In this document: positions 15,401 through 30,494 of the stretch, in pieces
How positions within the stretch are numbered: the stretch's first letter is position 1
Layout of the letters: every line of letters starts with the position of its first letter
Origin: a phage
Sequence record: PZ296772.1
Length of the DNA stretch: 64,000 nt
Reading direction: 5' to 3' (one strand)
Notes under the pieces: generated by a model
Database searches by the model: none
Told to the model about the DNA's origin: nothing
Seen by the model: only the letters and a program-made list of their open reading frames with translations
Program-made: the position numbers and the translations under genes

Positions 15401-15985
15401 ATGACTCGTCCAGCGAGACAGATTTTTAACCAAACAAATATAACAAACTTTGTTGTGGATATCCCGGATAGTACACGAACTTCAGGTTTTGTGCTCAATG
15501 CCCAAACGGCTCCATTGCCAGGTGTGAGAATTCCTGTTGTTGAAACTGTGACAGGCACAATGGGGCTAGGACGTGCAATGCGTGCAGGCACCACATTTGA
15601 ATATGACCCTTTTATTGTACGATTTATAGTTGATGAAGACATGACGTCCTGGATGAACATGTATAAATGGATGCTCAGCACTAATAACTATATAACCGGC
15701 CATAATACGGCCCACTCTGATGGTCCTGAGTTTGTTACTTTGCACATTTTAAACAACAATAAGACCGAAGTAGTTTTGACGGCAAATTTCTATAAACCAT
15801 GGATTTCCGATTTGAGTGAAATTGAATTTAGTTACACTGAAGACTCTGACCCTGCCGTTACTTGCGTAGCAACTATTCATTACGCGTATATGACGATAGA
15901 AAAAGATGGCGAAGTCATTGTATCTCAACAACCACGTCAAGCGGTCGAATCTAAATCCATTTCTAGACACCCTTCCTTGCGTTAA
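15401..15985 (+). CDS. 3: Tail completion protein gp3 (by synteny)
   Basis: 194-aa ORF MTRPARQIFNQ... with GAGG RBS 5 nt upstream; lies between gene 2 and gene 1. Confidence 0.6.
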   Translation: MTRPARQIFNQTNITNFVVDIPDSTRTSGFVLNAQTAPLPGVRIPVVETVTGTMGLGRAMRAGTTFEYDPFIVRFIVDEDMTSWMNMYKWMLSTNNYITGHNTAHSDGPEFVTLHILNNNKTEVVLTANFYKPWISDLSEIEFSYTEDSDPAVTCVATIHYAYMTIEKDGEVIVSQQPRQAVESKSISRHPSLR

Positions 15986-19661: not shown

Positions 19662-19735
19662 GGCCCTGTAGCTCAACGGTTAGCAGCAGTCCCCTCATAA
19701 GGGAAAGGTTACCAGTTCGAATCTGGTCTGGGTCA
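19662..19735 (+). tRNA. tRNA with anticodon CAU (Met or Ile2/lysidine type)
   Basis: Hand-folded cloverleaf: acceptor GGCCCUG/CUGGGUC (1 mismatch), T-arm ACCAG-UUCGAAU-CUGGU, anticodon loop CUCAUAA; CCA not encoded. Confidence 0.65.
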
Positions 19736-19741
19736 TATATT

Positions 19742-19818
<77 letters not shown>

Positions 19819-20494: not shown

Positions 20495-20522
20495 AGCCCC
20501 TTCCGAAAGGTTGGGGCTTTTT
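20495..20522 (+). terminator. Intrinsic terminator (repeat family copy 1)
   Basis: AGCCCCUUCC-GAAA-GGUUGGGGCU hairpin followed by UUUUU. Confidence 0.7.
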
Positions 20523-20567
20523 GGTATAATAATAAATAGATAAGTTAATTAACTTAGGAAAAGCAAC

Positions 20568-21032
20568 ATGAAATCATACGCTGAATTTTTGACTGAACAA
20601 TCTAGTTCAGATGTAAAAGCCGCTGCGATTGCAGCAATTCAAGCAGGTAAATATTCTTACAAAGACGCCTCCGATGAAGAACGTTTCCGTTTTATTAGAG
20701 ATTTTAAAGCCGAAGGTTTTACTAATGCTAATACTGTTAGCCGAGTTTTTAAAAGCCTAGCTGCATCAGGTGAATTGTTCCAGAAAGCTACAGGTAAAGC
20801 ACCTGCGCCAAAAGCGGACCCTAAAACAGCTCAAGAAAAAAATATCGCCAAAGGAATTATTTCTAAGTATGAAGCAATTCTTAAAGAGCTTTTAGTAATC
20901 AAAACAGAAGGCCAGAAACTGGCACGAGCACATAGTTTCAAAGATAATCCTCACGCTCATAGCCTTGAGTATGTTGAAGATATCCAAAAACTTATTAAAG
21001 ACCGTATCTGGTCTGCTAAACAAATTAAATAA
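20568..21032 (+). CDS. Capsid-targeted internal protein candidate
   Basis: 154-aa ORF starting MKSYAEFLTEQ (CTS-like, LTE at 8-10); Ala/Lys-rich. Confidence 0.6.
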   Translation: MKSYAEFLTEQSSSDVKAAAIAAIQAGKYSYKDASDEERFRFIRDFKAEGFTNANTVSRVFKSLAASGELFQKATGKAPAPKADPKTAQEKNIAKGIISKYEAILKELLVIKTEGQKLARAHSFKDNPHAHSLEYVEDIQKLIKDRIWSAKQIK

Positions 21033-21038
21033 TAGAAT

Positions 21039-21065
21039 GCCCCTTCCTTACGGTTGGGGCTTTTT
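21039..21065 (+). terminator. Intrinsic terminator (repeat family copy 2)
   Basis: GCCCCUUCC-UUAC-GGUUGGGGC hairpin followed by UUUUU. Confidence 0.7.
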
Positions 21066-21098
21066 GGTATCTAGGGCATAAAAATATTTCATAAAGAT

Positions 21099-21140
21099 GT
21101 TTACTTCTTCTAAGGACATGATACTATAGACTTATCAACC
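21099..21140 (+). promoter_or_regulatory. Early promoter cassette (GTTTAC -35, TACTAT -10)
   Basis: -35 21099-21104, -10 21122-21127, 17-bp spacer, followed by CTTATCAAC leader. Confidence 0.5.
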
Positions 21141-21155
21141 GCAGAGGAAAATGTT

Positions 21156-21461
21156 ATGAGTCTTTATACTGAACTGAATAAAAAATCTGAAGAATCTGCT
21201 GAAACTATTTTTAAAAACGTGCAAAAGCGTATTCTAGAAAAGATGTATAACACTGCAGCTAAAGGTGAAAAATCTTGCCGGTTCCCGATGAGGTGTTCTT
21301 CTGATTTATGCGCAAATACTATTGAATGGCTGGAAAGTGAAGGTCTTACGGTAGAGAAAAACCCGGCGACTTCTATTGATAGCGAATCATATATTAGTAT
21401 TTCTTGGGATAAACCTCGTACGAATGAAGGACACTACAAGTTGTTAAGTTGGAAAAATTAA
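21156..21461 (+). CDS. Hypothetical protein
   Basis: 101-aa ORF; no recognised motif. Confidence 0.5.
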   Translation: MSLYTELNKKSEESAETIFKNVQKRILEKMYNTAAKGEKSCRFPMRCSSDLCANTIEWLESEGLTVEKNPATSIDSESYISISWDKPRTNEGHYKLLSWKN

Positions 21462-21470
21462 AAATAACGA

Positions 21471-21510
21471 TGTACAAGCACCAAGGATGGTGATACTATA
21501 GACTTATCAA
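21471..21510 (+). promoter_or_regulatory. Early promoter cassette (TGTACA -35, CACCA/TGGTG inverted repeat, TACTAT -10)
   Basis: -35 21471-21476, inverted repeat 21479-21492, -10 21494-21499. Confidence 0.5.
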
Positions 21511-21529
21511 CTACAGAGGAGTAAACAAA

Positions 21530-21694
21530 ATGACTACTTTAATTATTTGGTTCGATGAAAATGAAGAAACATACTGTGTGAATATCGGTGAAAGTCCAAT
21601 GCCTGAATTTGAATCCTCAGATAAAAACTCTGTTGTATCTTGGGCTGAAGGTTATAAAGCCGCTAAAGGTGACGTTGAAATAATTTACATCTAA
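21530..21694 (+). CDS. Small hypothetical protein (54 aa, below ORF-track cutoff)
   Basis: ATG 8 nt after GAGGAG RBS; MTTLIIWFDENEETYCVNIG...; shares leader and first codons (ATGACTACTTT) with ORF at 26139. Confidence 0.5.
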   Translation: MTTLIIWFDENEETYCVNIGESPMPEFESSDKNSVVSWAEGYKAAKGDVEIIYI

Positions 21695-21720
21695 GTAAGT
21701 TTATGTTATAGTAATCACAT
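21684..21720 (+). promoter_or_regulatory. Early promoter-like element (TTTACA -35, TATAGT -10)
   Basis: -35 21684-21689, -10 21707-21712, 17-bp spacer, upstream of ORF 21741. Confidence 0.45.
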
Positions 21721-21740
21721 CAAATCAAGAGGAAAACAAA

Positions 21741-21968
21741 ATGGCTAAAGTTAGTATTGATGTCGTTGATTATGAATATACCGAAGAAGTTATTCGCAAC
21801 CGTCACCCTGAAGTTCGTATCGATTCAGCCCAAGATTCCAAGTTCTGGACAACTGAGCTTAATCTGAGTGGTCCTTATGAAGCTGTTAAGAAGTTCATGG
21901 TTGAAGAATACTGCGAAGGCATGCACCCGGAAGACGCCAAGTTTTATGTCAATTTGATTAAAAAATAA
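21741..21968 (+). CDS. Hypothetical protein
   Basis: 75-aa ORF. Confidence 0.5.
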   Translation: MAKVSIDVVDYEYTEEVIRNRHPEVRIDSAQDSKFWTTELNLSGPYEAVKKFMVEEYCEGMHPEDAKFYVNLIKK

Positions 21969-22005
21969 TTTACAAACTCTTGAGAGCAGAGTATAATGCT
22001 CTCAT
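21969..22005 (+). promoter_or_regulatory. Early promoter cassette (TTTACA, TATAAT, TGAGAGCA/TGCTCTCA inverted repeat)
   Basis: -35 21969-21974, -10 21992-21997, 8-bp inverted repeat flanking the -10; near-duplicate of cassette at 53512. Confidence 0.55.
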
Positions 22006-22038
22006 TGGATAATAAACCACCAATTGAAAGGTAATAAT

Positions 22039-22632
22039 ATGAACACACTGAAGAAACTTGTTGAATTCATCCGCACTAAACTGGGTACTGCTATGGCTAA
22101 AAATCTGACTGTCGAAGAACAGTATAATGCAGCTGCAGATAAGTTGATTACCCAAATCAGAGAACTAAAAACGGCTTCTGTTAAATCTATTAATGAAGAA
22201 AAACGTATTCGCGAACTTGTTATTGAAAAGAATAAGCAAGCCGCTTCTAAGGAACGTGAAATTCGTAAGCTCCTGGCTGAAGGACAAGATGTTACCATGC
22301 ATGCTAAGCTTGGTCTTCTGTATCGTCGAACTGCCGAACAACTTAATACAAAAGCTGACGGGTATGCCGCTATGCGAATTGAAATTGCTCGTAAGGTGGT
22401 TGAACTTGACGATGCTCGTCAGAATCTGGCAATCAAACTCGAATACATTCGTGAAACTCGAGCAGCCAATGCCCTTGGTATCTCTACGGCTGATGATGTA
22501 ATTGAAATCGCTGCACTGACTAAGGTTGATATCGAAGACACTCTGACTCGTGTTGAAACGTTCAATGGCACTCCAGCTGGTGTCGAAACCACTTCTGCCG
22601 ATGTACAAGAATATATTAACTCTTTGAAATAA
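22039..22632 (+). CDS. Coiled-coil protein
   Basis: 197-aa product from [16 protein letters not shown]; long heptad-rich helices; any PspA-like resemblance is compositional only. Confidence 0.5.
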
Positions 22633-22640
22633 AATAATAC

Positions 22641-22662
22641 GGAGGACTCAGGTCCTCCTTTT
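22641..22662 (+). terminator. Intrinsic terminator
   Basis: GGAGGAC-UCAG-GUCCUCC hairpin followed by UUUU. Confidence 0.65.
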
Positions 22663-22681
22663 GGATAATAAAGGAGTTAAC

Positions 22682-23278
22682 ATGCGAAACCAAAATAATG
22701 ATATTGACTCAATGTTCGAAGAGTTCCGAAATAAGGTAAATCCACCTACGTCTTTAGTTGATTCATTACGATATGTTGCAACTGGACGTAAATGGTACTG
22801 GTCGTCTTCTTATGAGACAACTGAATATGCAAATAACCGAAAATCTTTATTAGCCCCAGGTATTATGATTCATGATATCGGAGCTATTGCTAAACTAGTT
22901 GCAGACCATGATATTAGATTCACTGATTTCATTGCTCCTACATGGTCTGTTTGTTGTTTAAACACTGAACGGGACTATATCAGCGAACGCTCTGAAGATT
23001 ATTATGGTTTTAGAGATAAGCTCTTAAGGTCTAACATGTTTTATATCGATACTGAAGTTCTAGTCGATAATAAAAAATATTACTTTACGTTAATCGTCGA
23101 TTCTGAAACTATGTATGAAGGCAAGCCTTTGCTTAAAAGAGTTGATGCTTTAAGTGCTATTGATGCGCTTTATGAAACCATGGTTGTTAGTCCTAATTTC
23201 ACTAACAATTTAATCCTTGAGCAATTTATTATGGAATGTAGAGAATATGTCAAAGCCAACCCTATACATGCCAAGTAA
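22682..23278 (+). CDS. Hypothetical protein ending in FIMECR tail motif
   Basis: 198-aa product from MRNQNNDID (AAGGAG RBS); C-terminus ...EQFIMECREYVKANPIHAK. Confidence 0.55.
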   Translation: MRNQNNDIDSMFEEFRNKVNPPTSLVDSLRYVATGRKWYWSSSYETTEYANNRKSLLAPGIMIHDIGAIAKLVADHDIRFTDFIAPTWSVCCLNTERDYISERSEDYYGFRDKLLRSNMFYIDTEVLVDNKKYYFTLIVDSETMYEGKPLLKRVDALSAIDALYETMVVSPNFTNNLILEQFIMECREYVKANPIHAK

Positions 23279-23642
23279 GCCCTGGGCGTATGAATACAAG
23301 CGTAAATTAATCCCAAATGAAGTACTATTTGGCCCTATTTTAGCTTTAGCATTTTTAATCTTTATGATTATAGGAGCTGTTTTAGATTCTAGTGAAGTTA
23401 TATCGTCTGATGCAGCATTTTCATTAATGTTCGTCGCACCACTTATTGTACCATTTTTATTAATGCCTATTAACTGGGTAGGATATTGGCACCAAGGCCG
23501 TCATCACAGAGCTCGAGTTCGTGAGTGGAAAGTTCAGTGCGCAAAAGCCCAAGCTCAGTATGATGAAGCTGTTAAAAAGTATGAATATGAAGAAGCTATG
23601 GAATTCGTTAAGGAAATAAGATGCAAAAGCCTCAACTCTTAA
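23247..23642 (+). CDS. Membrane protein (2 TM) with basic/helical C-terminal tail
   Basis: Start chosen at MSKPTLYMPSK (alternatives 23217 or 23268); hydrophobic helices; tail ...EFVKEIRCKSLNS. Confidence 0.45.
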   Translation: MSKPTLYMPSKPWAYEYKRKLIPNEVLFGPILALAFLIFMIIGAVLDSSEVISSDAAFSLMFVAPLIVPFLLMPINWVGYWHQGRHHRARVREWKVQCAKAQAQYDEAVKKYEYEEAMEFVKEIRCKSLNS

Positions 23643-23980
23643 CCGTATGGCCTTCTCTTGGTGAGAATATTTTAATTTTTATCACGAGCGCCGGCATGGG
23701 ATTTGCCTTTGGATTAGTTGGATTTCTTATTGACGGCGTTGTGTTAGGATTTATAGGGAACACTGGTGGGTTCACAGACCAATGGCAGGACTTACGGTAT
23801 ACCCAAGCCTTTGCATCCATCGCATCCTTTTGTACTGTAGTCTATTTTTACTACGATTTTATAAACCATAACAAGAAAAATAAAAAGGTTTACGCTTCTC
23901 AAATGATTAGTTATAATGAACTCCTAGCTAGACGTGAAAATGAAACAATCGAAAACTTTATTAAGGAATGTAGAAAATGA
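23621..23980 (+). CDS. Membrane protein with C-terminal ENFIKECRK tail
   Basis: 119-aa ORF; 2-3 hydrophobic helices then Lys-rich linker and ENFIKECRK terminus. Confidence 0.55.
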   Translation: MQKPQLLTVWPSLGENILIFITSAGMGFAFGLVGFLIDGVVLGFIGNTGGFTDQWQDLRYTQAFASIASFCTVVYFYYDFINHNKKNKKVYASQMISYNELLARRENETIENFIKECRK

Positions 23981-24282
23981 GTAAGATTATTGAAATTAAA
24001 GTACCAGAGTTTAATGATGCCAAATCCGCTTCAGATGCAATTTATAAACTTCTGAATCAAGCTGAACGTATCGAAGAAGAAGCAACAAAGATCGCAGACC
24101 AATATTCTGTATCATTTTCTGTAGGTGATTATGGTAGCGGTCGTACTTATTATCCTAAGGGTGAAATCGTATCCCAGTGGATGAAAAATGAAATTGAAAA
24201 TAATGGCGGCGATGTTAAGCGTGAAGGTAATGGTTACGTTATTACTGAAGGTGCTTGGGTTTCGTCTTCTGCGTTGTGCTAA
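23977..24282 (+). CDS. Tandem paralog 1 of GWVSSSxxC family
   Basis: 101-aa ORF ending GAWVSSSALC; followed by two paralogs with near-identical spacers (TGCTAAGGAA..ATG). Confidence 0.55.
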   Translation: MSKIIEIKVPEFNDAKSASDAIYKLLNQAERIEEEATKIADQYSVSFSVGDYGSGRTYYPKGEIVSQWMKNEIENNGGDVKREGNGYVITEGAWVSSSALC

Positions 24283-24291
24283 GGAATCATT

Positions 24292-24564
24292 ATGTCTAAA
24301 GAACAAACCGAACTGGCTGAAGCCGTAGCAAAAATATATGCAGCTATTGAGGCTGCCAAAGAAATTGCTGATAAACAAAACACAACATTCGACTTGTATC
24401 CAGCTTATGGTATGGGTGGAACCTATCATTCACCAGGACATCTTAAAGCCGATCTTGAACGTTGTACAAAAAACGGTTATGCTGAATGGGCTGATGTTTA
24501 TCAATACGACTACAACCTGAGCCTTGAAGATGGTGGTTGGGTTGCATCTTCACACACTTGCTAA
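24292..24564 (+). CDS. Tandem paralog 2 of GWVSSSxxC family
   Basis: 90-aa ORF ending GGWVASSHTC. Confidence 0.55.
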   Translation: MSKEQTELAEAVAKIYAAIEAAKEIADKQNTTFDLYPAYGMGGTYHSPGHLKADLERCTKNGYAEWADVYQYDYNLSLEDGGWVASSHTC

Positions 24565-24573
24565 GGAAACCAT

Positions 24574-24771
24574 ATGTCTCGTGAATTAGATTGTGCTGTA
24601 CGTACCGCGGTAGCTGCTCTAGAAAACCTGTTCCAAATTGCAACAGAAGAACGCGAAGAAGTTACATTATGGATTGAAGATAACGCAGGTCTGAATCTCC
24701 AGGACGCGATCTCATTATCTAATAATAGCATTACTGTTCAAGGCTGGGTATCGTCTAGTTATTCTTGCTAA
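24574..24771 (+). CDS. Tandem paralog 3 of GWVSSSxxC family
   Basis: 65-aa ORF ending QGWVSSSYSC. Confidence 0.55.
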   Translation: MSRELDCAVRTAVAALENLFQIATEEREEVTLWIEDNAGLNLQDAISLSNNSITVQGWVSSSYSC

Positions 24772-24775
24772 AACA

Positions 24776-24814
24776 GTTTACAATAAGATAGGACTATGTT
24801 ATAGTAGTCCTATC
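24776..24814 (+). promoter_or_regulatory. Early promoter cassette (GTTTAC, TATAGT, GATAGGACTA/TAGTCCTATC inverted repeat)
   Basis: -35 24776-24781, -10 24800-24805, perfect 10-bp inverted repeat 24787-24796 / 24805-24814. Confidence 0.65.
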
Positions 24815-24833
24815 AAATTAAATGGAGTCCGCA

Positions 24834-25073
24834 ATGATTTATTACGAAAGTATCGGAACCAAAGTGGTTGGTAAAACCATTACTCGTGAAAAGTTTGCAA
24901 AGATATTCGATATGCGTTATAAAAAATCTGAACACAAAGGCATCCGATTCGAAGATGCGCACTGTGCAATTTGCCCTTATAATGAAGACGTAAATGGTAC
25001 AATCGTTCCATTGGTAGAGGCTTCACATGATGACCTCTGGGATGAATATAATATCGCATGTCGTGAAATTTAA
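24834..25073 (+). CDS. Hypothetical protein
   Basis: 79-aa product from MIYYESIGTK (GGAG RBS); ends ...YNIACREI. Confidence 0.5.
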   Translation: MIYYESIGTKVVGKTITREKFAKIFDMRYKKSEHKGIRFEDAHCAICPYNEDVNGTIVPLVEASHDDLWDEYNIACREI

Positions 25074-25101
25074 GTTAATGAATTAATCCGAGGAAAATAT
25101 T

Positions 25102-26058
25102 ATGATGTTAGTTATTGGTTCTCGTGCACTTCACTATCATGGTCTTATTGATTCTAGCGCTATCAAAAATAGTGATTGGGACTTTATTGCAGACCAAGGT
25201 TCTTGGAATGCATTCAAAAATCAAATGATGGGTGTATATGTTCATCAAGATAACCCTGATGTCCAAGTTTTCAAATGCTTCCATAATGGACGCGAAACTC
25301 ATTTTGAAGCATATATTGTTCCGGCAATCACTAATGTCCGTGAATTAGTCGGTGAACTCACTCCTGAAGATTTCACGTCTTCTTATGACCTTTTAAAATA
25401 CGCCAAGAAAAATTTGACTAAAGACCGTTTGACCGGGTTTTACTGGGCAACTCCTGAGATATGTCTTGCAATTAAAATGTCTCATCGTTTCAAGAAAAAT
25501 AATCCATTCTTTTTAAAGACTATGAACCATATTCAGTATCTTCGCGGTAAAGGTGTTACACTGAACGATGAACTTACTGAAATTATGCTGAAACGCCAGA
25601 AAGAAACTTTGAACTATGCTCACCCGGTTCTTGACACTTCTAAAAGTGCGTTCTTTAAAGATGACATCTATACATATGACCATGATACTATTCATGAAGC
25701 CATTGCACTAACTGACCAGCCTGCTTATAAGTTTTATATGAAAGAAGGCTCAGAAGTTATGACATCACGCGAGAAGTTCGAATCATTACCAGAAATGGTT
25801 AAATTAGCCGGTGTATATGAAGAAGCTTGTGTATTAGCTCTTGAACGTTCACAGATTCCTAACGACTTTAAAATCCATCCGAGTGATAGTTTTATGATGG
25901 CCCTTGAAAAGGTCTGTACATCAATCACATCAGGATGGTTCCGTGAGTTCGCTTGGGAAAATTATAGCAAAGTAGTAAGTATGTACCAAAGCTTAGGACA
26001 TGACGATTACGTCAAGCGTTTCAAACAAAACTTTCATATGGTAAAACCTTTCAAATAA
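25102..26058 (+). CDS. Hypothetical protein, possible nucleotidyltransferase-like N-terminus (weak)
   Basis: 318-aa ORF; N-terminal VIGSRA...(17 aa)...SDWDFI loosely resembles hG[GS]...DxD of Pol-beta-type NTases but spacing is long. Confidence 0.5.
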   Translation: MMLVIGSRALHYHGLIDSSAIKNSDWDFIADQGSWNAFKNQMMGVYVHQDNPDVQVFKCFHNGRETHFEAYIVPAITNVRELVGELTPEDFTSSYDLLKYAKKNLTKDRLTGFYWATPEICLAIKMSHRFKKNNPFFLKTMNHIQYLRGKGVTLNDELTEIMLKRQKETLNYAHPVLDTSKSAFFKDDIYTYDHDTIHEAIALTDQPAYKFYMKEGSEVMTSREKFESLPEMVKLAGVYEEACVLALERSQIPNDFKIHPSDSFMMALEKVCTSITSGWFREFAWENYSKVVSMYQSLGHDDYVKRFKQNFHMVKPFK

Positions 26059-26070
26059 TTTCACAAAACA

Positions 26071-26106
26071 GTTTACAAGGTCTGTAGTTGTTGATACTAT
26101 AGACCT
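26071..26106 (+). promoter_or_regulatory. Early promoter cassette (GTTTAC, TACTAT, AGGTCTGTAG/CTATAGACCT inverted repeat)
   Basis: -35 26071-26076, -10 26095-26100, inverted repeat with one mismatch. Confidence 0.6.
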
Positions 26107-26138
26107 ATCAAAACAAATGAGTGAATGGAGATATAAAA

Positions 26139-26339
26139 ATGACTACTTTGAATAAACGTTTCGGTAAAGCTAAACCTGGTTGTGCAGCAGAACGTCGTTA
26201 TGTTTTCGCTCAGTTAGAAGATGTAGAGTATCAGATTAATCAAGTTCACATTACTGGTATCGAGCCTATGTGTGGCCTTGAAGCTCTTCGTGAAGTTCGT
26301 GATGGGTATCGTCGTGACATCGAAGAAATGTCAAAATAA
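26139..26339 (+). CDS. Hypothetical protein
   Basis: 66-aa product from MTTLNKRFGKAKPG (GGAG RBS). Confidence 0.5.
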   Translation: MTTLNKRFGKAKPGCAAERRYVFAQLEDVEYQINQVHITGIEPMCGLEALREVRDGYRRDIEEMSK

Positions 26340-26340
26340 G

Positions 26341-26378
26341 TGTACAAACTGATAGGGCTATGTTATAGTAGTCCTATC
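26341..26378 (+). promoter_or_regulatory. Early promoter cassette (TGTACA, TATAGT, GATAGGGCTA/TAGTCCTATC inverted repeat)
   Basis: -35 26341-26346, -10 26364-26369, imperfect 10-bp inverted repeat. Confidence 0.55.
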
Positions 26379-26395
26379 AACTTGAGGAGAATATT

Positions 26396-26701
26396 ATGAA
26401 ATTAACAGAAACCAACCGAATCGGTCTTTTTACAATATTTGCATCGCTTTTTTACGCAGCTCTTTCTGTTGCAGTATTACAAAAGGCTTACGATATGGAT
26501 GGTGTTCCTGGTTGTATATTTTTATCACCGTTTTTATTATTCGTCGGAGCTTTGATATTATATGCCACGTCCGGTTTAGACCATAATGTCTGGGTCAATT
26601 ATAAACGTAAATTGTCCGAAGAAGAACACGCAGAAGCTCGTAAAAAAGCTATTGAATCTACCAATCTAGAAAATTTCATTAAAGAATGTCGAGGAAAATA
26701 A
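26396..26701 (+). CDS. Membrane protein (2 TM) with C-terminal ENFIKECRGK tail
   Basis: 101-aa ORF; two hydrophobic helices, charged helical linker, ENFIKECRGK terminus. Confidence 0.6.
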   Translation: MKLTETNRIGLFTIFASLFYAALSVAVLQKAYDMDGVPGCIFLSPFLLFVGALILYATSGLDHNVWVNYKRKLSEEEHAEARKKAIESTNLENFIKECRGK

Positions 26702-26702
26702 T

Positions 26703-27389
26703 ATGAATAGTTCTAAAGTGTTTAATAGTCAAGCTCGTGCAGTAGGTGGTTTTGCCGGCGGTATTTCTAATGATAAAATCAAGAACGAGCCTATGTTCTT
26801 CAACTGTAGTTTAGAATTTGCTTATAATAACGGCGGTCCTATTACTCGCTCTTTCATTATGAACTTGCCGGATGATTGGAACACCGACCAGGTTGTATTT
26901 GATTCACGAGTCCACATGCTGATGCCTGGTTGGTATCCTGCAATCCCAGGCTATCACCATGATGACGTACCACGCCCAGATATTCCAGTTGGTCAACACT
27001 TTATTACTGCAGGACAACCTGACTATGACAACCCTCGTTACCATTCTGAACATATTCTTGGTCTTGTTAACGCTGATGTGTGTCCTACTCATTTTGCAAC
27101 AGGAACTGCGGAGTTCAGTCAGATTCCTGATGGCGAACTTATCTATCGCCAGTGGCACAAAGAAGTCCTCGAAAAAATTGAAAAAGGTGAACTAGAGAAA
27201 TGGGAAGCTCCGGACCGTACTCTTCTTCAGTTTGATTGGCAAACATGGCACACTGGTTCTCGTGCAATTAGTAATGGATGGCGTTGGTTCGGACGTGTAT
27301 CTCGTAATACAGACAGAGTTAAAAAGATTACCAATGAAATTCGTGTCAATGCCCAAGTTTATCTGGAATTCCCTATGGAAGGCTGGTAA
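26703..27389 (+). CDS. Hypothetical protein (His-rich, possible metal-binding)
   Basis: 228-aa ORF with YHHDD and HSEH clusters; function not assignable from sequence. Confidence 0.5.
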   Translation: MNSSKVFNSQARAVGGFAGGISNDKIKNEPMFFNCSLEFAYNNGGPITRSFIMNLPDDWNTDQVVFDSRVHMLMPGWYPAIPGYHHDDVPRPDIPVGQHFITAGQPDYDNPRYHSEHILGLVNADVCPTHFATGTAEFSQIPDGELIYRQWHKEVLEKIEKGELEKWEAPDRTLLQFDWQTWHTGSRAISNGWRWFGRVSRNTDRVKKITNEIRVNAQVYLEFPMEGW

Positions 27390-27880
27390 TGATACATAAA
27401 ATTCACTGGGCAAACATGGACGATGGCGATGAAGGTATTTCATATTATTCTATAGATTGGACAGGATGTCCATCCTACTTAGTGAAACATATTTGTCAAG
27501 AATTTAAAATCGACCAGCCAGCAGGTATTATCGTGAACAGATACATTAATGGATATCAACCTATCGATGAAGTAATACGAACAACTCAAGCTGAGCTTGA
27601 AAAGTTTTTCAATAAGTGCCAATGGATAACAGGATGGATTATATTTGTACCGTCTATATGGTTTTTCAGTACTAAGGTGAGTTCTTTCGGTTTTGTTGAT
27701 ACTATTGCTATCTTATTAGCATCTAGTATCATAAGTGTTGTTGGTGGCATCATTGGCGGCGGTACCGCCGCCATCATTATTAATCTTGTTAAAAGTAGTT
27801 TACAAGAACATAAAGACAAGATAAAAGCCAAGAATAATGAAGTTGAACGTTTTATTACCGAATGCAGGAATTTGAGATGA
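27389..27880 (+). CDS. Membrane protein with C-terminal ERFITECRNLR tail
   Basis: 163-aa ORF; soluble N-domain, two hydrophobic helices (res. about 85-135), Lys-rich linker and FITECR terminus. Confidence 0.6.
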   Translation: MIHKIHWANMDDGDEGISYYSIDWTGCPSYLVKHICQEFKIDQPAGIIVNRYINGYQPIDEVIRTTQAELEKFFNKCQWITGWIIFVPSIWFFSTKVSSFGFVDTIAILLASSIISVVGGIIGGGTAAIIINLVKSSLQEHKDKIKAKNNEVERFITECRNLR

Positions 27881-28113
27881 GTATAGCAATTTACATTAAA
27901 TCAGAATCATGTGATTCTTATCTGTATTCCTATGATACCGGAACGTCAGAAGAGAAAATCAAAGAAGATTTAGAAAGCGACTTGGATATGTTCCGACCTA
28001 TTTCTGATTATATGGTCCAAATATCTGATAGTGAAAGTCCGTCAACAGAAACATGTGTTGAAATTATTATACGAGATATCTTTAAACAATCACGGGACCG
28101 AGATGATGAGTAA
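27877..28113 (+). CDS. Hypothetical acidic protein
   Basis: 78-aa product from MSIAIYIKSES. Confidence 0.45.
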   Translation: MSIAIYIKSESCDSYLYSYDTGTSEEKIKEDLESDLDMFRPISDYMVQISDSESPSTETCVEIIIRDIFKQSRDRDDE

Positions 28114-28561
28114 GAAAAATAAAGTGAAAGAACTATCAGCCGGTATTATTTTCCTTACCGAAGATAAAGAATTATTCATGGGGCGTGTAACTGGTTCTCG
28201 TCCTAAAGGTTCTTTAGCTCATCGGTGGGATATTCCTAAAGGTCGTGTCGAGCCCGGTGAATCTCCTATCGAAGCCGCTATTCGTGAATGCGAAGAAGAA
28301 ACTGGGTTTACACAATATGACCCTGCCTTCCTGAAAGACCTAGGTGAACATCATTACTCAGACAATAAGAATATTCATCTGTTCCTATATACCATCCCTG
28401 TAGAGCACGAGCAATTCAGAAACAGTGTTTGTAATTCCTATCATACATTCCCAGATGGACGACAGATTCCTGAATTTGATGCATTCGCTTTAATTAAACC
28501 TTCTCAATGGGAATATGTAATGGGCAAATCATTATATAAGGTGCTCACTACCCTCTTATAA
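28103..28561 (+). CDS. nudE: Nudix hydrolase NudE
   Basis: Nudix box GRVEPGESPIEAAIRECEEETG; 152 aa; immediately upstream of lysozyme e as in T4. Confidence 0.9.
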   Translation: MMSKKNKVKELSAGIIFLTEDKELFMGRVTGSRPKGSLAHRWDIPKGRVEPGESPIEAAIRECEEETGFTQYDPAFLKDLGEHHYSDNKNIHLFLYTIPVEHEQFRNSVCNSYHTFPDGRQIPEFDAFALIKPSQWEYVMGKSLYKVLTTLL

Positions 28562-28569
28562 GTAATAAA

Positions 28570-28593
28570 TACCTCCTATAAACGTGGGAGGTA
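28570..28593 (+). promoter_or_regulatory. Stem-loop sequestering the Shine-Dalgarno of gene e
   Basis: TACCTCC-tataaacgtg-GGAGGTA: 3' arm contains GGAGG 5 nt before the e start codon; loop contains late-promoter-like TATAAACG. Confidence 0.6.
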
Positions 28594-28595
28594 TT

Positions 28596-29084
28596 ATGAA
28601 TATATTTGAAATGCTTCGTAATGACGAAGGTCTTAGACTGACTTTATACAAAGACACTGAAGGCTTTTGGACTATTGGCATAGGCCATTTAGTAACAAAG
28701 AACCCGTCTTTAGCCGTAGCTAAAGCTGAACTTGACAGAATGATCGGTCGTAAATGCAACGGTACAATTACACTTGATGAGGCTGAAAAGCTATTTAATG
28801 AAGACGTTGATAAAGCCGTTCGCGGAGTCTTGGGTAATGCTAAACTTAAACCGGTATATGATTCTTTAGATGCGGTTCGTCGATGTGCATTGGTCAATAT
28901 GGTCTTCCAAATGGGTGTAGCAGGCGTCGCCGGTTTTACTAATTCTCTTCGTATGCTTCAACAGAAACGTTGGGACGAGGCGGCAGTAAATCTAGCCCAA
29001 TCTAAATGGTATCGTCAGACACCTAATCGCGCGAAACGCGTAATCTCAACATTTAAAACAGGAACTTGGAAAGCGTATATATGA
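28596..29084 (+). CDS. e: Endolysin (T4 lysozyme e)
   Basis: 162-aa product [32 protein letters not shown]... about 80% identical to T4 lysozyme from memory; catalytic Glu/Asp/Thr context conserved. Confidence 0.97.
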
Positions 29085-29362
29085 AAACATATAGTGAATT
29101 TTTATCAGAATCTATTCTTAGCGAAGCTACTGACACATTTGCAACTAAGCTAGGTGCAGCTTTGGTTGAAGCTGAAAGTCTATTAGCACGTATTTCTGAA
29201 CTTGCTAGTAAGATAGATACTCGCAAATTTGAGCGCACCAGTGATATCGTTAAGCTTGAAGCATTGTTGCGCATGTGTGATAAACCAGAAGAAATCGCTA
29301 AGAACGGTTCGCTGATGAAACAACGTCTTGAAAAATATATTTCAGGCGCTTCAGAAAAATAG
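29081..29362 (+). CDS. Capsid-targeted internal protein candidate (IPIII/IPII position)
   Basis: 93-aa product from [15 protein letters not shown] (CTS-like, LSE at 8-10 and 13-15). Confidence 0.65.
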
Positions 29363-29363
29363 T

Positions 29364-29416
29364 GTTTACTTCCTCCAAGGTCTTTGATACTATACATTCA
29401 TCAACTACTTGGAGGA
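29364..29416 (+). promoter_or_regulatory. Early promoter cassette upstream of denV (GTTTAC, TACTAT, 9-bp inverted repeat containing the denV RBS)
   Basis: -35 29364-29369, -10 29388-29393, TCCTCCAAG (29371-29379) / CTTGGAGGA (29408-29416). Confidence 0.6.
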
Positions 29417-29420
29417 AATT

Positions 29421-29834
29421 ATGACTCGTATCAATTTAACACTTGTTTCTGAACTGGCCGACCAACATCTTATGGCTGAGTATCGTGAATTACCACGCGT
29501 ATTTGGTGCAGTCCGTAAACATGTCCAAAATGGTAAACGTGTAAAGGATTTTAAAATCTCTCCAACATTTATCTTAGGCACAGGTCACGTAACATTCTTT
29601 TACGACAAACTCGAATTTTTACGTTTACGTCAAATCGAGCTAATCGCTGAATGTTTGAAACGCGGTTTCAAAATAAAGGACACGACGGTCCAGGATATTT
29701 CCGACATACCTGCCGAATTTCGTAATAATTATGTCCCGTCCGAAGCGTCCATTGCGATAAGTCAAGCACGCTTAGATGAAAAAATTGCTCAACGTCCGAC
29801 TTGGTACAAATACTATGGTAAATCAATTTACTAA
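29421..29834 (+). CDS. denV: Endonuclease V (pyrimidine dimer DNA glycosylase)
   Basis: 137-aa product [34 protein letters not shown]..., very close to T4 endo V from memory. Confidence 0.95.
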
Positions 29835-29840
29835 GGAAAA

Positions 29841-30101
29841 ATGAAAATGTATCAAGAATTTATCTTTGAAGCAGATGCCAAAGGTCCTAAATTTAAAGTT
29901 AAAGCTTTCATTGGTGATGCGGAAGACTTTGGCTCGTTAAAACGTAATGGATATTCTTTCTTAGGTGGCGATGGTAAAGAAATCAACACCTATGCAAAAC
30001 GTAGTGAAATTGCTTATGTTGTAGCAAGCCCTAAAGTAGACGTTGGCGATATTGGATATGATTTTAACAACTTCGGAATTATTTCTGGCGGTAAAGCTTA
30101 A
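29841..30101 (+). CDS. Capsid-targeted internal protein candidate
   Basis: 86-aa ORF starting MKMYQEFIFEADAKG (CTS-like, IFE at 8-10). Confidence 0.65.
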   Translation: MKMYQEFIFEADAKGPKFKVKAFIGDAEDFGSLKRNGYSFLGGDGKEINTYAKRSEIAYVVASPKVDVGDIGYDFNNFGIISGGKA

Positions 30102-30164: not shown

Positions 30165-30494
30165 ATGAAAACGTATAAAGAATTTATCACTGAAGTTACA
30201 TTATCTGCGGAACAGAAAGCTGCTATCGAAGAAGGTAAAAATCCCAAAGTAACATATAAAGTAAATAGTAAAGGCGTTTTTGATGGTTTGGTTCAAGACC
30301 CTGAATTGAAAAAAGCTCTTTCTAAAACTAATGCGTACTTTGCTCCTAAATTTAACACAGCCGGTGTACTTATTGGATTGGATGTATTCAACTCTAAAGG
30401 TGTTCTATCTAATGCCTTTGGTTATGCCGCTAACAAAATTACCAAAGCTGCATGGGAATCCAATACCAAACAAGCTCAAAAGCCTAGAGTATAA
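30165..30494 (+). CDS. Capsid-targeted internal protein candidate
   Basis: 109-aa ORF starting MKTYKEFITEVTLSAEQ (CTS-like, ITE at 8-10). Confidence 0.65.
   Translation: MKTYKEFITEVTLSAEQKAAIEEGKNPKVTYKVNSKGVFDGLVQDPELKKALSKTNAYFAPKFNTAGVLIGLDVFNSKGVLSNAFGYAANKITKAAWESNTKQAQKPRV

Follow-up and report, generated by a model that had tools for sequence, protein, structure and literature searches.

A conserved C-terminal tail on otherwise unrelated early proteins encoded between e.6 and nudE in T4-type phages

Proteins of about 14–16 otherwise unrelated families, encoded in one early-gene block of T4-type phages, end in the same short peptide with the core F-[IV]-x-x-C-R. We give about an even chance to the reading that this tail is a common cytoplasmic, amphipathic C-terminal interaction or docking motif for one putative shared partner. 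An earlier note had described the tail on five ORFs of the DNA analyzed here (PZ296772.1; the whole stretch of 64 kb is called the window); the coordinates of all five ORFs and their tails were verified, and the observation is real and was understated. The window belongs to a Mosigvirus, an RB69-like T4-type phage. Its tail-gene block spans e.6 to nudE, with the conserved e.6 as upstream edge and nudE, followed by lysozyme e (28584-29084) and then denV, on the downstream side; the T4 equivalent is e.5, e.4, e.3 and e.2. Judged by sequence and gene order, ORFs A, B, C and E are the orthologs of T4 e.5, e.4, e.3 and e.2, respectively, and the fifth, ORF D, appears to be a Mosigvirus-only paralog without a T4 counterpart. 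The block members are early accessory proteins of T4-type phages, and the first tail-bearing gene begins at most ~60 nt 3′ of e.6 in all e.6-anchored loci.

22039..22632, + strand: e.6 homolog, 197 aa, without the tail motif; 88% identity to T4 e.6
22682..23278, + strand: ORF A, 198 aa, soluble; T4 e.5 ortholog (48% identity), phrog_2607; tail ...LILEQFIMECREYVKANPIHAK
23225..23242, + strand: ORF A tail motif F-I-M-E-C-R (TTT ATT ATG GAA TGT AGA)
23247..23642, + strand: ORF B, 131 aa, 2-TM hairpin; T4 e.4 ortholog (55% identity), phrog_2604; degenerate tail ...MEFVKEIRCKSLNS
23604..23621, + strand: ORF B variant motif F-V-K-E-I-R
23621..23980, + strand: ORF C, 119 aa, 2-TM hairpin; T4 e.3 ortholog (35% identity), phrog_2330; tail ...IENFIKECRK
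23957..23974, + strand: ORF C tail motif F-I-K-E-C-R
26396..26701, + strand: ORF D, 101 aa, 2-TM hairpin; phrog_9798; tail ...LENFIKECRGK
26675..26692, + strand: ORF D tail motif F-I-K-E-C-R (TTC ATT AAA GAA TGT CGA)
27389..27880, + strand: ORF E, 163 aa, with a cytoplasmic N-terminal domain and a 2-TM hairpin; phrog_2203; tail ...VERFITECRNLR
27851..27868, + strand: ORF E tail motif F-I-T-E-C-R (TTT ATT ACC GAA TGC AGG)
28103..28561, + strand: nudE (Nudix hydrolase), which bounds the tail-bearing block downstream

ORF A, in which no hydrophobic segment was found, ends in ...LEQFIMECREYVKANPIHAK before its stop codon, and T4 e.5 in ...EKFVKECREYVKAITIPSK. It continues for 11 residues beyond the motif and overlaps ORF B. 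ORF B has two hydrophobic segments and ends in ...EFVKEIRCKSLNS before its stop codon. Its Cys lies off the canonical position, and the TG of this TGC codon is at the same time part of the start codon ATG of ORF C (AGA-TGC). Since this codon is forced by the overlapping start, ORF B is a degenerate variant, F-V-K-E-I-R. The same variant occurs in T4 e.4 (FVKESRC; C-terminal end ...KFVKESRCKSQS), and the e.4 proteins of T4 and Mosigvirus thus have no Cys at +4. In ORF C, AAGGAA within the K-E codons forms the Shine-Dalgarno (SD) sequence of the next gene (ATG 23977); T4 e.3 ends in ...KEFVIDCRKIK. An internal deletion in phage G2469 took most of gene C and retained its last 30 codons before the next gene.

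ORF D, present in only 4 loci, all Mosigvirus, is probably a distant paralog of the C-terminal half of ORF E: its residues 14-99 weakly match phrog_2203, the family of ORF E, and BLASTP of ORF D against ORF E gives E=0.006. The SD of the gene that follows it is GAGGA, within the Arg-Gly codons. ENFIKECR is identical in ORFs C and D, yet the two copies differ at 5 synonymous sites per 24 nt, indicating that there was no recent gene conversion. ORF E, whose C-terminal end is ...ERFITECRNLR followed by the stop codon, is the full-length form of T4 e.2 (39% identity across residues 1-46); its tail contains AGGAA, the SD of the gene that starts with ATG 27877. In the T4 reference, a frameshift interrupts e.2 5′ of the tail, so that the annotated e.2 ends before it.

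Six-frame translation of the 64 kb window yielded 4 matches to F-[IV]-x-E-C-R, all of them C-terminal, compared to a mean of 0.06 and a maximum of 1 in 300 residue shuffles; the motif is therefore not at background frequency. Even a much looser pattern has C-terminal matches in real ORFs of the window only in A–E. One additional match, on the minus strand at 15796, is antisense within a real gene. In six frames, the complete T4 genome has exactly 3 matches to F[IV]xxCR. They form the C-terminal ends of e.5, of e.3 and of the e.2 remnant and were also the top matches of a tail HMM among 1408 T4 ORFs; such a tail-only HMM is too short for detecting mimicry of a host motif. Among the databases and literature searched, no database family and no paper describes the tail, in agreement with the earlier note, whose author knew of no such motif family.

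Across relatives, the longer consensus is [LIFV]-[EDN]-x-F-[IV]-x-x-C-R-[KRNG], at a distance of 0-15 residues from the C-terminus. The note's FI(K/M/T)ECR is thus a real, C-terminal shared motif, but its Glu, found in 47 of 109 tails, lies outside the conserved core. Conservation is limited to positions -3 to +5; the residues upstream are charged and variable, with mostly Lys, Glu or Asn at -7 and -10. The hydrophobic positions -3, 0, +1 and +4 share one face of a helix, with the Arg alongside.

In 40 related loci we found 113 gene-strand C-terminal instances of the motif, all located 0.5-6.6 kb downstream of e.6, and only 3 non-gene-strand C-terminal matches, which are copies of one spurious antisense ORF. 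Each genome encodes 2-5 carriers, always a mixture of soluble and membrane types. Tail-masked BLAST separated the carriers into 16 real components, of which HHalign joins only a few, which bears out the view that the tail sits on otherwise different proteins. Soluble proteins make up at least 4 of the carrier families, and 2-TM proteins at least 9. The soluble e.5 family is the most widespread carrier (39 loci), and a 2-TM gene always lies directly 3′ of the soluble e.5-type gene. With e.5 and at least three other families soluble, the tail does not define a family of small membrane proteins, as had been suggested; the TM hairpins exist, but they number four (B, C, D and E) rather than three, and ORF A is soluble. 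By the positive-inside rule (K/R counts), the C-termini are predicted to be cytoplasmic, in line with the proposed common cytoplasmic tail. The motif occurs in Mosigvirus, Tequatrovirus, Dhakavirus, Gaprivervirus and Kanagawavirus as well as in Citrobacter phage Merlin and Erwinia phage Cronus; Serratia phage Muldoon has it as F[IL]xxCK, and lineage variants are FIKNVR in Kanagawavirus and FIKECK in Dhakavirus. Some lineages thus tolerate loss or decay of the tail (e.4, T4 e.2, Kanagawavirus and Dhakavirus), which weighs against a docking motif.

Within families, the tail stands out against divergent bodies. N94, F182, C186 and R187 are the only invariant residues of the e.5 family (13-sequence alignment, 13-48% identity), and of the 5 residues that are invariant in the e.2 family (18-sequence alignment, minimum 18% identity), three are the F, C and R of the tail. 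The tail is likewise the best-conserved feature of two further families.

The codons of the tail vary freely, indicating that selection targets the peptide, i.e., that amino-acid-level purifying selection acts on it. In 109 distinct DNA contexts, Phe is encoded by TTT (75) or TTC (34), Cys by TGT (53) or TGC (56), and Arg by both codon families (CGN 58, AGR 51; CGT 38, AGA 28, AGG 23, CGA 11, CGC 8, CGG 1). The codon differences among the copies in the window are as originally reported, and the wider set confirms the conclusion that conservation is at the protein level and not that of a shared DNA junction. Due to the end-to-start packing of the genes, the tail codons double as ribosome-binding site of the next gene, whose SD is encoded within them. 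This dual coding explains the “ends at next start” pattern, the K/E/G bias (the x-x pair is often K-E, E-E or K-G) and whether Arg is encoded by AGR or CGN. If the next ATG is at most 4 nt from the motif, the SD lies in the x-x codons (31/34); at 5-12 nt it lies in the C-R codons (29/39; AGR 29 vs CGN 10), and beyond 12 nt it follows the motif (CGN 27 vs AGR 6). In A–E, the next start codon is positioned -1 to +10 nt from the Arg codon. The spacing, originally reported as 0-15 nt, varies from 1 to 31 nt across the 109 contexts, with three cases at 65; the nearness of the next start is not a special coupling. The five junctions fold no better than shuffles (z +1.5 to -1.5) and have neither a shared RNA structure nor an SD-sequestering hairpin.

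In the reading we favor, the tail would be a peptide-level short linear motif that makes up the final two to three turns of an α-helix in the cytoplasm, and a common protein-protein interaction handle for the whole e.6–nudE early module. Soluble and membrane-hairpin carriers would show the same handle on the cytoplasmic side, and it would most likely dock into one putative partner, of host or phage origin; we infer both the docking mode and the single partner. The anatomy resembles that of short linear motifs, with a short conserved core, variable upstream residues and a terminal helix in the AF2 models of ORFs A and E. In the model of ORF A (pLDDT 65, pTM 0.71), the tail lies inside helix 177-192, which is part of the folded body (pLDDT about 73), so that in soluble carriers the tail may pack in cis instead of being free. 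An invariant Cys would be unusual if the peptide did no more than dock; it hints at metal, disulfide or modification chemistry, which docking as such does not need.

Alternatively, the motif could be a by-product of nucleotide constraint, arising from a conserved ribosome-binding region, an RNA element or a junction at which gene cassettes are shuffled by recombination. The overlap of tail codons with the next SD, which visibly skews both the residues at x-x and the choice of Arg codon family, and the sparing of the last 30 codons of gene C in G2469 would fit this; however, F, I/V, C and R are fixed in spite of free variation at third codon positions, Arg switches between CGN and AGR, the SD occurs in three different registers relative to the motif, and Cys (UGY) is no product of an A/U- or purine-rich initiation region. 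Together with the lack of a shared RNA fold at the junctions and the synonymous differences between the tails of C and D, this makes the explanation extremely improbable, and the codon data largely refute it. Very unlikely, too, is a nascent-peptide arrest or coupling element that sets translation of the next gene, with the stall relieved by insertion or folding of the body. Such an element would suit a C-terminal peptide that stays conserved while the bodies evolve fast and that always has a start codon 1-31 nt 3′ of it. It would also suit the position of TM2, which in B, C, D and E precedes the motif by 22-41 residues, since insertion force acts on a nascent chain across about this range. 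Yet the spacing is not fixed: the stop of the same gene comes 0-15 codons after the motif and the next ATG 1-31 nt after it, or 65 nt in three cases. Moreover, the genes that follow are all of different kinds, with no secretion or insertion factor among them, no hairpin sequesters the SD (junction folding z +1.5 to -1.5), the bodies are themselves conserved within families, and the tail is without the Pro/Gly/Trp features typical of known arrest peptides.

Among readings that act on the finished protein, it is possible, though rather doubtful, that the tails bind each other and tether the soluble carriers, of the e.5 type and of small soluble families, to the membrane-hairpin carriers in one membrane-bound complex, in which the Cys at a heptad “a”-like position may bridge helices via a metal ion or disulfide. 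The constant mixing of soluble and membrane types among the 2-5 carriers of every genome, the 2-TM gene directly after the e.5-type gene and the -3/0/+1/+4 hydrophobic spacing, which suits helix-helix packing, all point this way, and metal or disulfide chemistry would explain the invariant Cys more easily; against it, only about 9 residues are conserved, no heptad pattern extends upstream, the tail is short for a stable coiled coil, and the cytoplasm is reducing. A degradation or sorting signal, i.e., a C-terminal degron or targeting tag through which all early proteins of the module would share one fate, such as being removed at a set time by FtsH, ClpXP or Lon, is unlikely. It would agree with a cytoplasmic, strictly C-terminal tail (0-15 residues from the end) common to unrelated proteins of one co-expressed block, but known bacterial C-terminal degrons are hydrophobic or degenerate and tolerate substitutions, whereas F, C and R are invariant here and acidic residues common; moreover, tail-specific recognition usually needs the extreme C-terminus, and up to 15 variable residues follow the motif. 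We consider it equally improbable that the hairpin carriers are holin/antiholin-like or superinfection-exclusion proteins with the tail as regulatory cytoplasmic domain. Their N-in/C-in arrangement of two TM segments, their charged C-terminal tail and the position of their genes, at most a few kb before endolysin gene e, would fit, and in Serratia phage Muldoon they are annotated as “putative holin or antiholin”. Still, Pfam and PHROGs searches detected no similarity to holin, antiholin, Imm, Sp or RI families, and the superinfection-exclusion or lysis-inhibition role suggested earlier is unsupported beyond size and membrane location. The same tail occurs on at least 4 soluble families, the genes run in early-gene direction inside an early block, T4 lysis depends on genes at other sites of the genome (t, rI and rIII), and the motif itself would stay unexplained.

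T4 e.5, e.4, e.3 and e.2 are listed as uncharacterized “conserved hypothetical” or “predicted membrane” ORFs between nudE and the tRNA cluster, and no function, motif or shared feature of them is recorded in the annotation or papers searched. Small size, two TM segments in N-in/C-in topology, a charged cytoplasmic C-terminus and a location near the endolysin gene are traits that the hairpin carriers have in common with class II holins and antiholins and small membrane proteins of the T4 Imm/Sp type, but the carriers differ in sequence, early-gene context and the presence of the tail on soluble proteins. In SecM, MifM and VemP, too, a membrane-bound or secreted leader protein has a conserved peptide at its C-terminus, and another gene lies directly 3′. 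The tails differ from these force-sensing arrest peptides in their variable spacing, the absence of a regulatory hairpin, the unrelated genes downstream and the conservation of the bodies. The T4 capsid targeting sequence (CTS; MKTYQEFIAE) is another short peptide common to unrelated (internal) proteins, with a local likeness of E-F-I-x-E to x-F-I-x-E-C-R. CTS-bearing ORFs lie at 20568, about 29081, 29841 and 30165 in the window. The CTS is N-terminal, acts in the prohead and is cleaved by gp21 after I/L-x-E, whereas the tail is C-terminal, has the Glu required for cleavage in just 47/109 cases, carries an invariant Cys-Arg without counterpart in the CTS and belongs to early, often integral membrane proteins. 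The clamp-binding tails of T4/RB69 gp43, gp33 and gp55 and the C-terminal tail of SSB follow the same logic as proposed here, in which a short C-terminal peptide common to unrelated proteins of one phage docks into one partner. Sliding-clamp-binding tails are L-D-F-L-F-like, without Cys-Arg, and in contrast to the proteins that bear them, the carriers of the F-[IV]-x-x-C-R tail belong to an early accessory module, and half of these carriers are anchored in the membrane.

A new C-terminal peptide motif, F-[IV]-x-x-C-R, defines the T4 e.2-e.5 accessory module. The window derives from an RB69-like Mosigvirus, a T4-type phage genus. Many Escherichia and Shigella genomes of this genus share 95-97% identity with region 20500-28600, and the plus strand is the early-gene direction. 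The T4 counterpart of this region is the interval tRNA - e.8...e.2 - nudE - e, and the window has the gene order of T4 (tRNA cluster - e.6 - e.5 - e.4 - e.3 - ... - e.2 - nudE - e - denV), with the tRNAs followed by small ORFs including e.6 (22039), ORFs A, B and C and, further downstream, E, nudE, e and denV:

19662-19818, tRNA-Met and tRNA-Arg
22039-22632, plus strand, e.6 homolog, upstream edge of the tail-bearing block
22682-23278, plus strand, ORF A
23247-23642, plus strand, ORF B
23621-23980, plus strand, ORF C
26396-26701, plus strand, ORF D
27389-27880, plus strand, ORF E
28103-28561, plus strand, nudE, downstream edge of the block
28584-29084, plus strand, lysozyme gene e
29409-29834, plus strand, denV

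Judged by similarity and gene order, A, B, C and E are orthologs of T4 e.5 (48% identity, E=2e-67), e.4 (55%, E=9e-58), e.3 (35%, E=2e-23) and e.2 (39% across the first 46 residues, E=8e-11; all BLASTP). For D, BLASTP revealed no T4 match; its TM hairpin and tail show a weak match to the PHROG of E. Close relatives often carry gene E (e.2-type) in pieces or with a shortened N-terminus, e.g., as two CDS in phage mobillu (fetched locus L001, 7586-8078) or as a 115-133 aa form in G2469 (L003, 8368-8715) and Shigella phage JK45 (L082, 7167-7565), and the piece with TM hairpin and tail is always retained as an ORF. Some Mosigviruses have lost nearly all of gene C, and its last 27-30 codons including ENFIKECRK stay directly before the next gene (Escherichia phage vB_EcoM_G2469, L003 5001-5090; L008, about 10680).

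The five ORFs and their tails lie where the earlier note had placed them, and the motif is real, strongly non-random and broader than that note saw. Translation of the 64 kb in six frames gives four matches to F-[IV]-x-E-C-R, compared to a mean of 0.06 and a maximum of 1 after residue shuffling. All four matches fall within the last 17 residues of an ORF, and even a far looser pattern detects only the same five ORF ends. A minus-strand match at 15796 was rejected as spurious, since it is antisense within a real gene. ORF A extends 11 residues beyond the motif, and in B the Cys is displaced, its TG being supplied by the overlapping ATG of C.

Distribution of the motif was analyzed in 34 loci around e.6 homologs (55-99% identity), 41 loci around nudE homologs and annotated Dhakavirus, Gaprivervirus and Kanagawavirus regions, counting as C-terminal any motif at most 15 residues from the stop of an ORF of more than 45 codons. 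The core that survives in all sampled loci is F-[IV]-x-x-C-R (F at position 0, C at +4, R at +5); the Glu that had been read as part of the motif is not included. All 113 gene-strand C-terminal instances are located 0.5-6.6 kb downstream of e.6, with 2-5 carriers per genome. Five opposite-strand matches correspond to two T4 genes in reversed orientation and three copies of a spurious antisense ORF, and about 25 scattered further matches are non-C-terminal or within short ORFs. No motif carriers were found in loci with only 31-37% NudE identity. The motif persists in more distant phages: tails of Erwinia phage Cronus end in RFIEDCRK and DFIAMCRESVKV, and those of Serratia phage Muldoon carry Lys in place of the Arg (EFIKYCKDKY and KFLKSCKEKY).

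In the complete T4 genome (NC_000866), assembled from five fetched pieces and translated in six frames, there are exactly three occurrences of the strict motif, which form the ends of e.5 (...EKFVKECREYV...), e.3 (...KEFVIDCRKIK) and the e.2 remnant; e.4 ends in ...KFVKESRCKSQS. An HMM of the tails ranked these same three ends as the best matches among 1408 T4 ORFs. A word-indexed protein search was insensitive here (three matches for query C, four for a 35-tail profile). When the tail-only profile was compared to 1.84 billion representatives, six of the seven matches at E<=1e-3 were T4-type phage proteins. The seventh, P0029 (534 aa, metagenome-derived), is a tandem repeat with nine copies of ...GSFISYCRDRAQIRH... 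(SFISYCRD) and was rejected as almost certainly a translated satellite repeat rather than a relative. The profile thus showed no carriers beyond T4-type phages, but with only 9 residues the motif is not long enough to exclude them.

Clustering of the carriers by BLAST with masked tails gave 18 components, two of which are spurious ORFs. The 16 real ones comprise the soluble e.5 family (39 loci), the e.2 family (23), the e.3 family (8), D, at least six further two-TM families and four small soluble families. Comparison of the masked alignments by HHalign linked only few components (e.2 with two ORFs of locus L029 and, weakly, with one other family), leaving about 14-16 families that are unrelated outside the tail. 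Paralogy of all membrane carriers gained no support from these few links, but the alignments of the TM hairpins are shallow and an old paralogy is possible.

Within families, the alignments indicate that the tail is the most conserved feature. Among 13 e.5-type proteins with 13-48% identity, only N94, F182, C186 and R187 are invariant; the five residues invariant in 18 e.2-type proteins include F, C and R of the tail, and two further families show a pattern like that of e.2. The logo of 35 non-redundant tails reads [LIFV](-3)-[EDN](-2)-x-F(0)-[IV](+1)-x-x-C(+4)-R(+5)-[KRNG]. Only positions -3 to +5 form the conserved core, preceded by charged sequence that varies and is often rich in Lys. The hydrophobic residues at -3, 0, +1 and +4 fall on one helix face. 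AF2 places the motif of A in a terminal helix (177-192; local pLDDT about 73, model pLDDT 65) and that of E, modeled from a single sequence, also in a terminal helix (127-162), which has the highest confidence within a model that is poor overall (pLDDT 44).

The earlier note had proposed a membrane-protein family with three TM hairpins. Membrane carriers are indeed present, but number four, as two hydrophobic segments are found in each of B, C, D and E; A is soluble with no hydrophobic segment. As it had recommended, topology was evaluated from hydrophobicity and Lys/Arg counts, which give two-TM N-in/C-in hairpins for all four. Because the C-terminal segments (8-11 Lys/Arg) and not the inter-TM loops (0-1) are Lys/Arg-rich, the tail, located 22-41 residues beyond TM2 in hairpin carriers, is predicted to be cytoplasmic. 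None of the carriers matches a functional family in Pfam, NCBIfam or PHROGs; PF26876, a precomputed entry for the e.5 family, lies outside the Pfam set searched. The e.6 and e.5 profiles had no match below E=0.2 in a PDB sequence search, and structure searches of BFVD returned uncharacterised T4-type phage proteins only. A literature search with a scope outside the T4 genome review found nothing on e.2-e.5 or the motif.

Selection acts on the peptide and not on the nucleotide sequence, as the earlier note had concluded from the copies in the window. Over 109 distinct DNA contexts, Phe is encoded by TTT (75) or TTC (34), Cys by TGT (53) or TGC (56) and Arg by CGT (38), AGA (28), AGG (23), CGA (11), CGC (8) or CGG (1), and the Ile/Val position uses six different codons. 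The tails of C and D are both ENFIKECR, yet differ by five synonymous changes. A nucleic-acid signal would not tolerate such codon variation, which indicates selection on the amino acids. No common RNA structure was found at the five junctions (fold z-scores +1.08, +0.08, +1.54, -0.54 and -1.52), and the idea of an RNA element was rejected on this basis. An explanation by the Shine-Dalgarno (SD) sequence of the next gene alone was also rejected, based on the codon tables and the variable SD register, and a nucleotide-level by-product is essentially refuted as the origin of the motif.

That the motif is followed by the next start codon holds in nearly all cases, with the ATG 1-31 nt past the Arg codon and the SD inside the tail in different registers. 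If this distance is at most 4 nt, the SD lies in the two x codons (31 of 34; K-E=AAGGAA, E-E=GAGGAA, K-G=AAAGGA), and Arg is CGN in 21 and AGR in 13 cases. At 5-12 nt, it lies in the Cys-Arg codons (29 of 39; AGR 29, CGN 10), and beyond 12 nt after the motif (CGN 27, AGR 6). Since the SD falls inside the tail, the Glu and the following basic or Gly residues are partly shaped by the ribosome-binding site of the neighbor; F, I/V, C and R are maintained whatever the register. Tails that end at the next start thus reflect dual coding in a tightly packed operon and not a special coupling device, and represent a clean case in which a selected peptide motif and a ribosome-binding site share codons in three registers.

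Several annotations can be revised. Compared to locus L010 (10952-11440), the T4 reference e.2 (NC_000866 67,490-67,960) has lost one nucleotide (-1) in an A-run and gained one (+1) 78 nt farther on, and a stop codon lies between the two sites, whereas other Tequatroviruses encode an intact 162-aa e.2 ending in ...NNFITECRKLK. Because of these frameshifts and the stop, the annotated 102-aa T4 e.2 is a truncated, tail-less form of this protein, either a lab-strain pseudogene or the result of an old sequencing error. T4 still encodes the e.2 tail in frame, directly before nudE. The annotated nudE start (record position 67,490; MQEIKMKTLSAG...) is an ATG in the Glu-Cys codons (GA-ATG-C) of this tail, and a second ATG 15 nt downstream, with a properly spaced AGGAA, is more likely the T4 nudE start. 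A similar ambiguity (27862 vs 27877) affects the ORF after E in the window. In several GenBank records, e.g., JK45 (L082 2943-3338), e.4 homologs are labeled 'sulfurtransferase'. B has no Pfam or NCBIfam match at all, and hence none to rhodanese, TusE/DsrC or any other sulfurtransferase family, and its PHROG is of unknown function; the label is probably a propagated annotation error.

The block contains further features. Right after C, three small tandem paralogs (23977-24282, 24292-24564 and 24574-24771) end in a second C-terminal motif, W-V-[SA]-S-S-x-x-C-stop (GAWVSSSALC, GGWVASSHTC and QGWVSSSYSC). Dhakavirus and Kanagawavirus have 4-6 such ORFs (WVSSSAMC, WVSSSSEC, WFSSSMSC, WYPSSC, WYSSSMQNC). 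None has a significant Pfam match, and only 23977-24282 shows sub-threshold ones. Mid-block, a 318-aa protein (25102-26058) with DUF7277 (E=9e-28) and DUF7275 (E=1e-78) is conserved in Dhakavirus, Kanagawavirus and locus L059 and absent in T4. Between D and E, a 228-aa protein (26703-27389; phrog_1843, unknown function; no Pfam or NCBIfam family) is unusually conserved: its counterpart in Erwinia phage Cronus is 82% identical, and Dhakavirus and Kanagawavirus have homologs over the full length (228 and 237 aa); it is also absent in T4. Its GYHHDDVP and HSEHILG stretches might bind metal. Four ORFs with capsid-targeting-sequence-like N-termini (20568-21032, about 29081-29362, 29841-30101 and 30165-30494) probably encode internal head proteins; one is located upstream of the e.6 block, at a distance from the ipII/ipIII position.

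Although no phage has been studied more than T4, its e.2-e.5 block is still without an assigned function. One invariant C-terminal peptide is common to the members of this block despite unrelated bodies, and is kept in no fewer than eight T4-type lineages, whose hosts are Escherichia, Enterobacter, Citrobacter, Erwinia and Serratia. A short conserved core with variable flanks on unrelated bodies characterizes a short linear motif (SLiM), and the evidence fits a C-terminal SLiM acting as common interaction handle for the whole accessory module. Such a handle would dock into one third-party partner or let the carriers bind each other. An invariant Cys would be unusual in a peptide that only docks, and this residue may have a chemical role. 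It is conceivable, if rather improbable, that Cys-Arg serves as a reactive or metal-binding handle wiring unrelated soluble and membrane-anchored early proteins into one membrane-bound machine. Candidates would be a Cys-bridged metal site, a disulfide or a covalent-modification site, the latter used, for example, by ADP-ribosyltransferases of the phage that target Arg or Cys, with the neighboring Nudix hydrolase in the same pathway. If true, such an organization of an accessory-gene module would be new among phages. With the motif, a dozen orphan families become a single module that can be tested through one handle, the partner of which could point to the targeted pathway.

Other roles of the tail are rated lower than an interaction handle. 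A degron would be expected to be less invariant and to occupy the very end of the protein. A holin or antiholin function would agree with the two TM segments, N-in/C-in topology and charged C-terminal tail of B, C, D and E, but A and other carriers are soluble, and no holin, antiholin, RI or T family was detected in Pfam, PHROGs or NCBIfam, the PHROG matches being 'unknown function' or 'membrane protein'; a 'holin/antiholin' label has no family support of its own. Superinfection exclusion, to whose T4 proteins the earlier note had pointed for their size and membrane location, is ranked similarly low: the tail also occurs on soluble proteins, and T4 imm and sp map to other genome regions, in which no F[IV]xxCR occurs. 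Nascent-chain arrest would require other junctions than those observed, where motif-to-start spacing varies and the downstream genes are unrelated small ORFs, the 228-aa conserved protein or nudE, and not a secretion or insertion factor.

In contrast to the SecM, MifM and VemP peptides, which have a fixed spacing, an SD-sequestering hairpin and the gene of the monitored factor downstream, the tails have none of these features. With class II holins and antiholins, B, C, D and E share the topology but not the sequence family, and for Imm and Sp there is no homology, as judged by Pfam and PHROGs. The T4 capsid targeting sequence is N-terminal and carries a gp21 cleavage site (I/L-x-E), whereas the motif described here is C-terminal and has Glu at +3 in only 47 of 109 tails.
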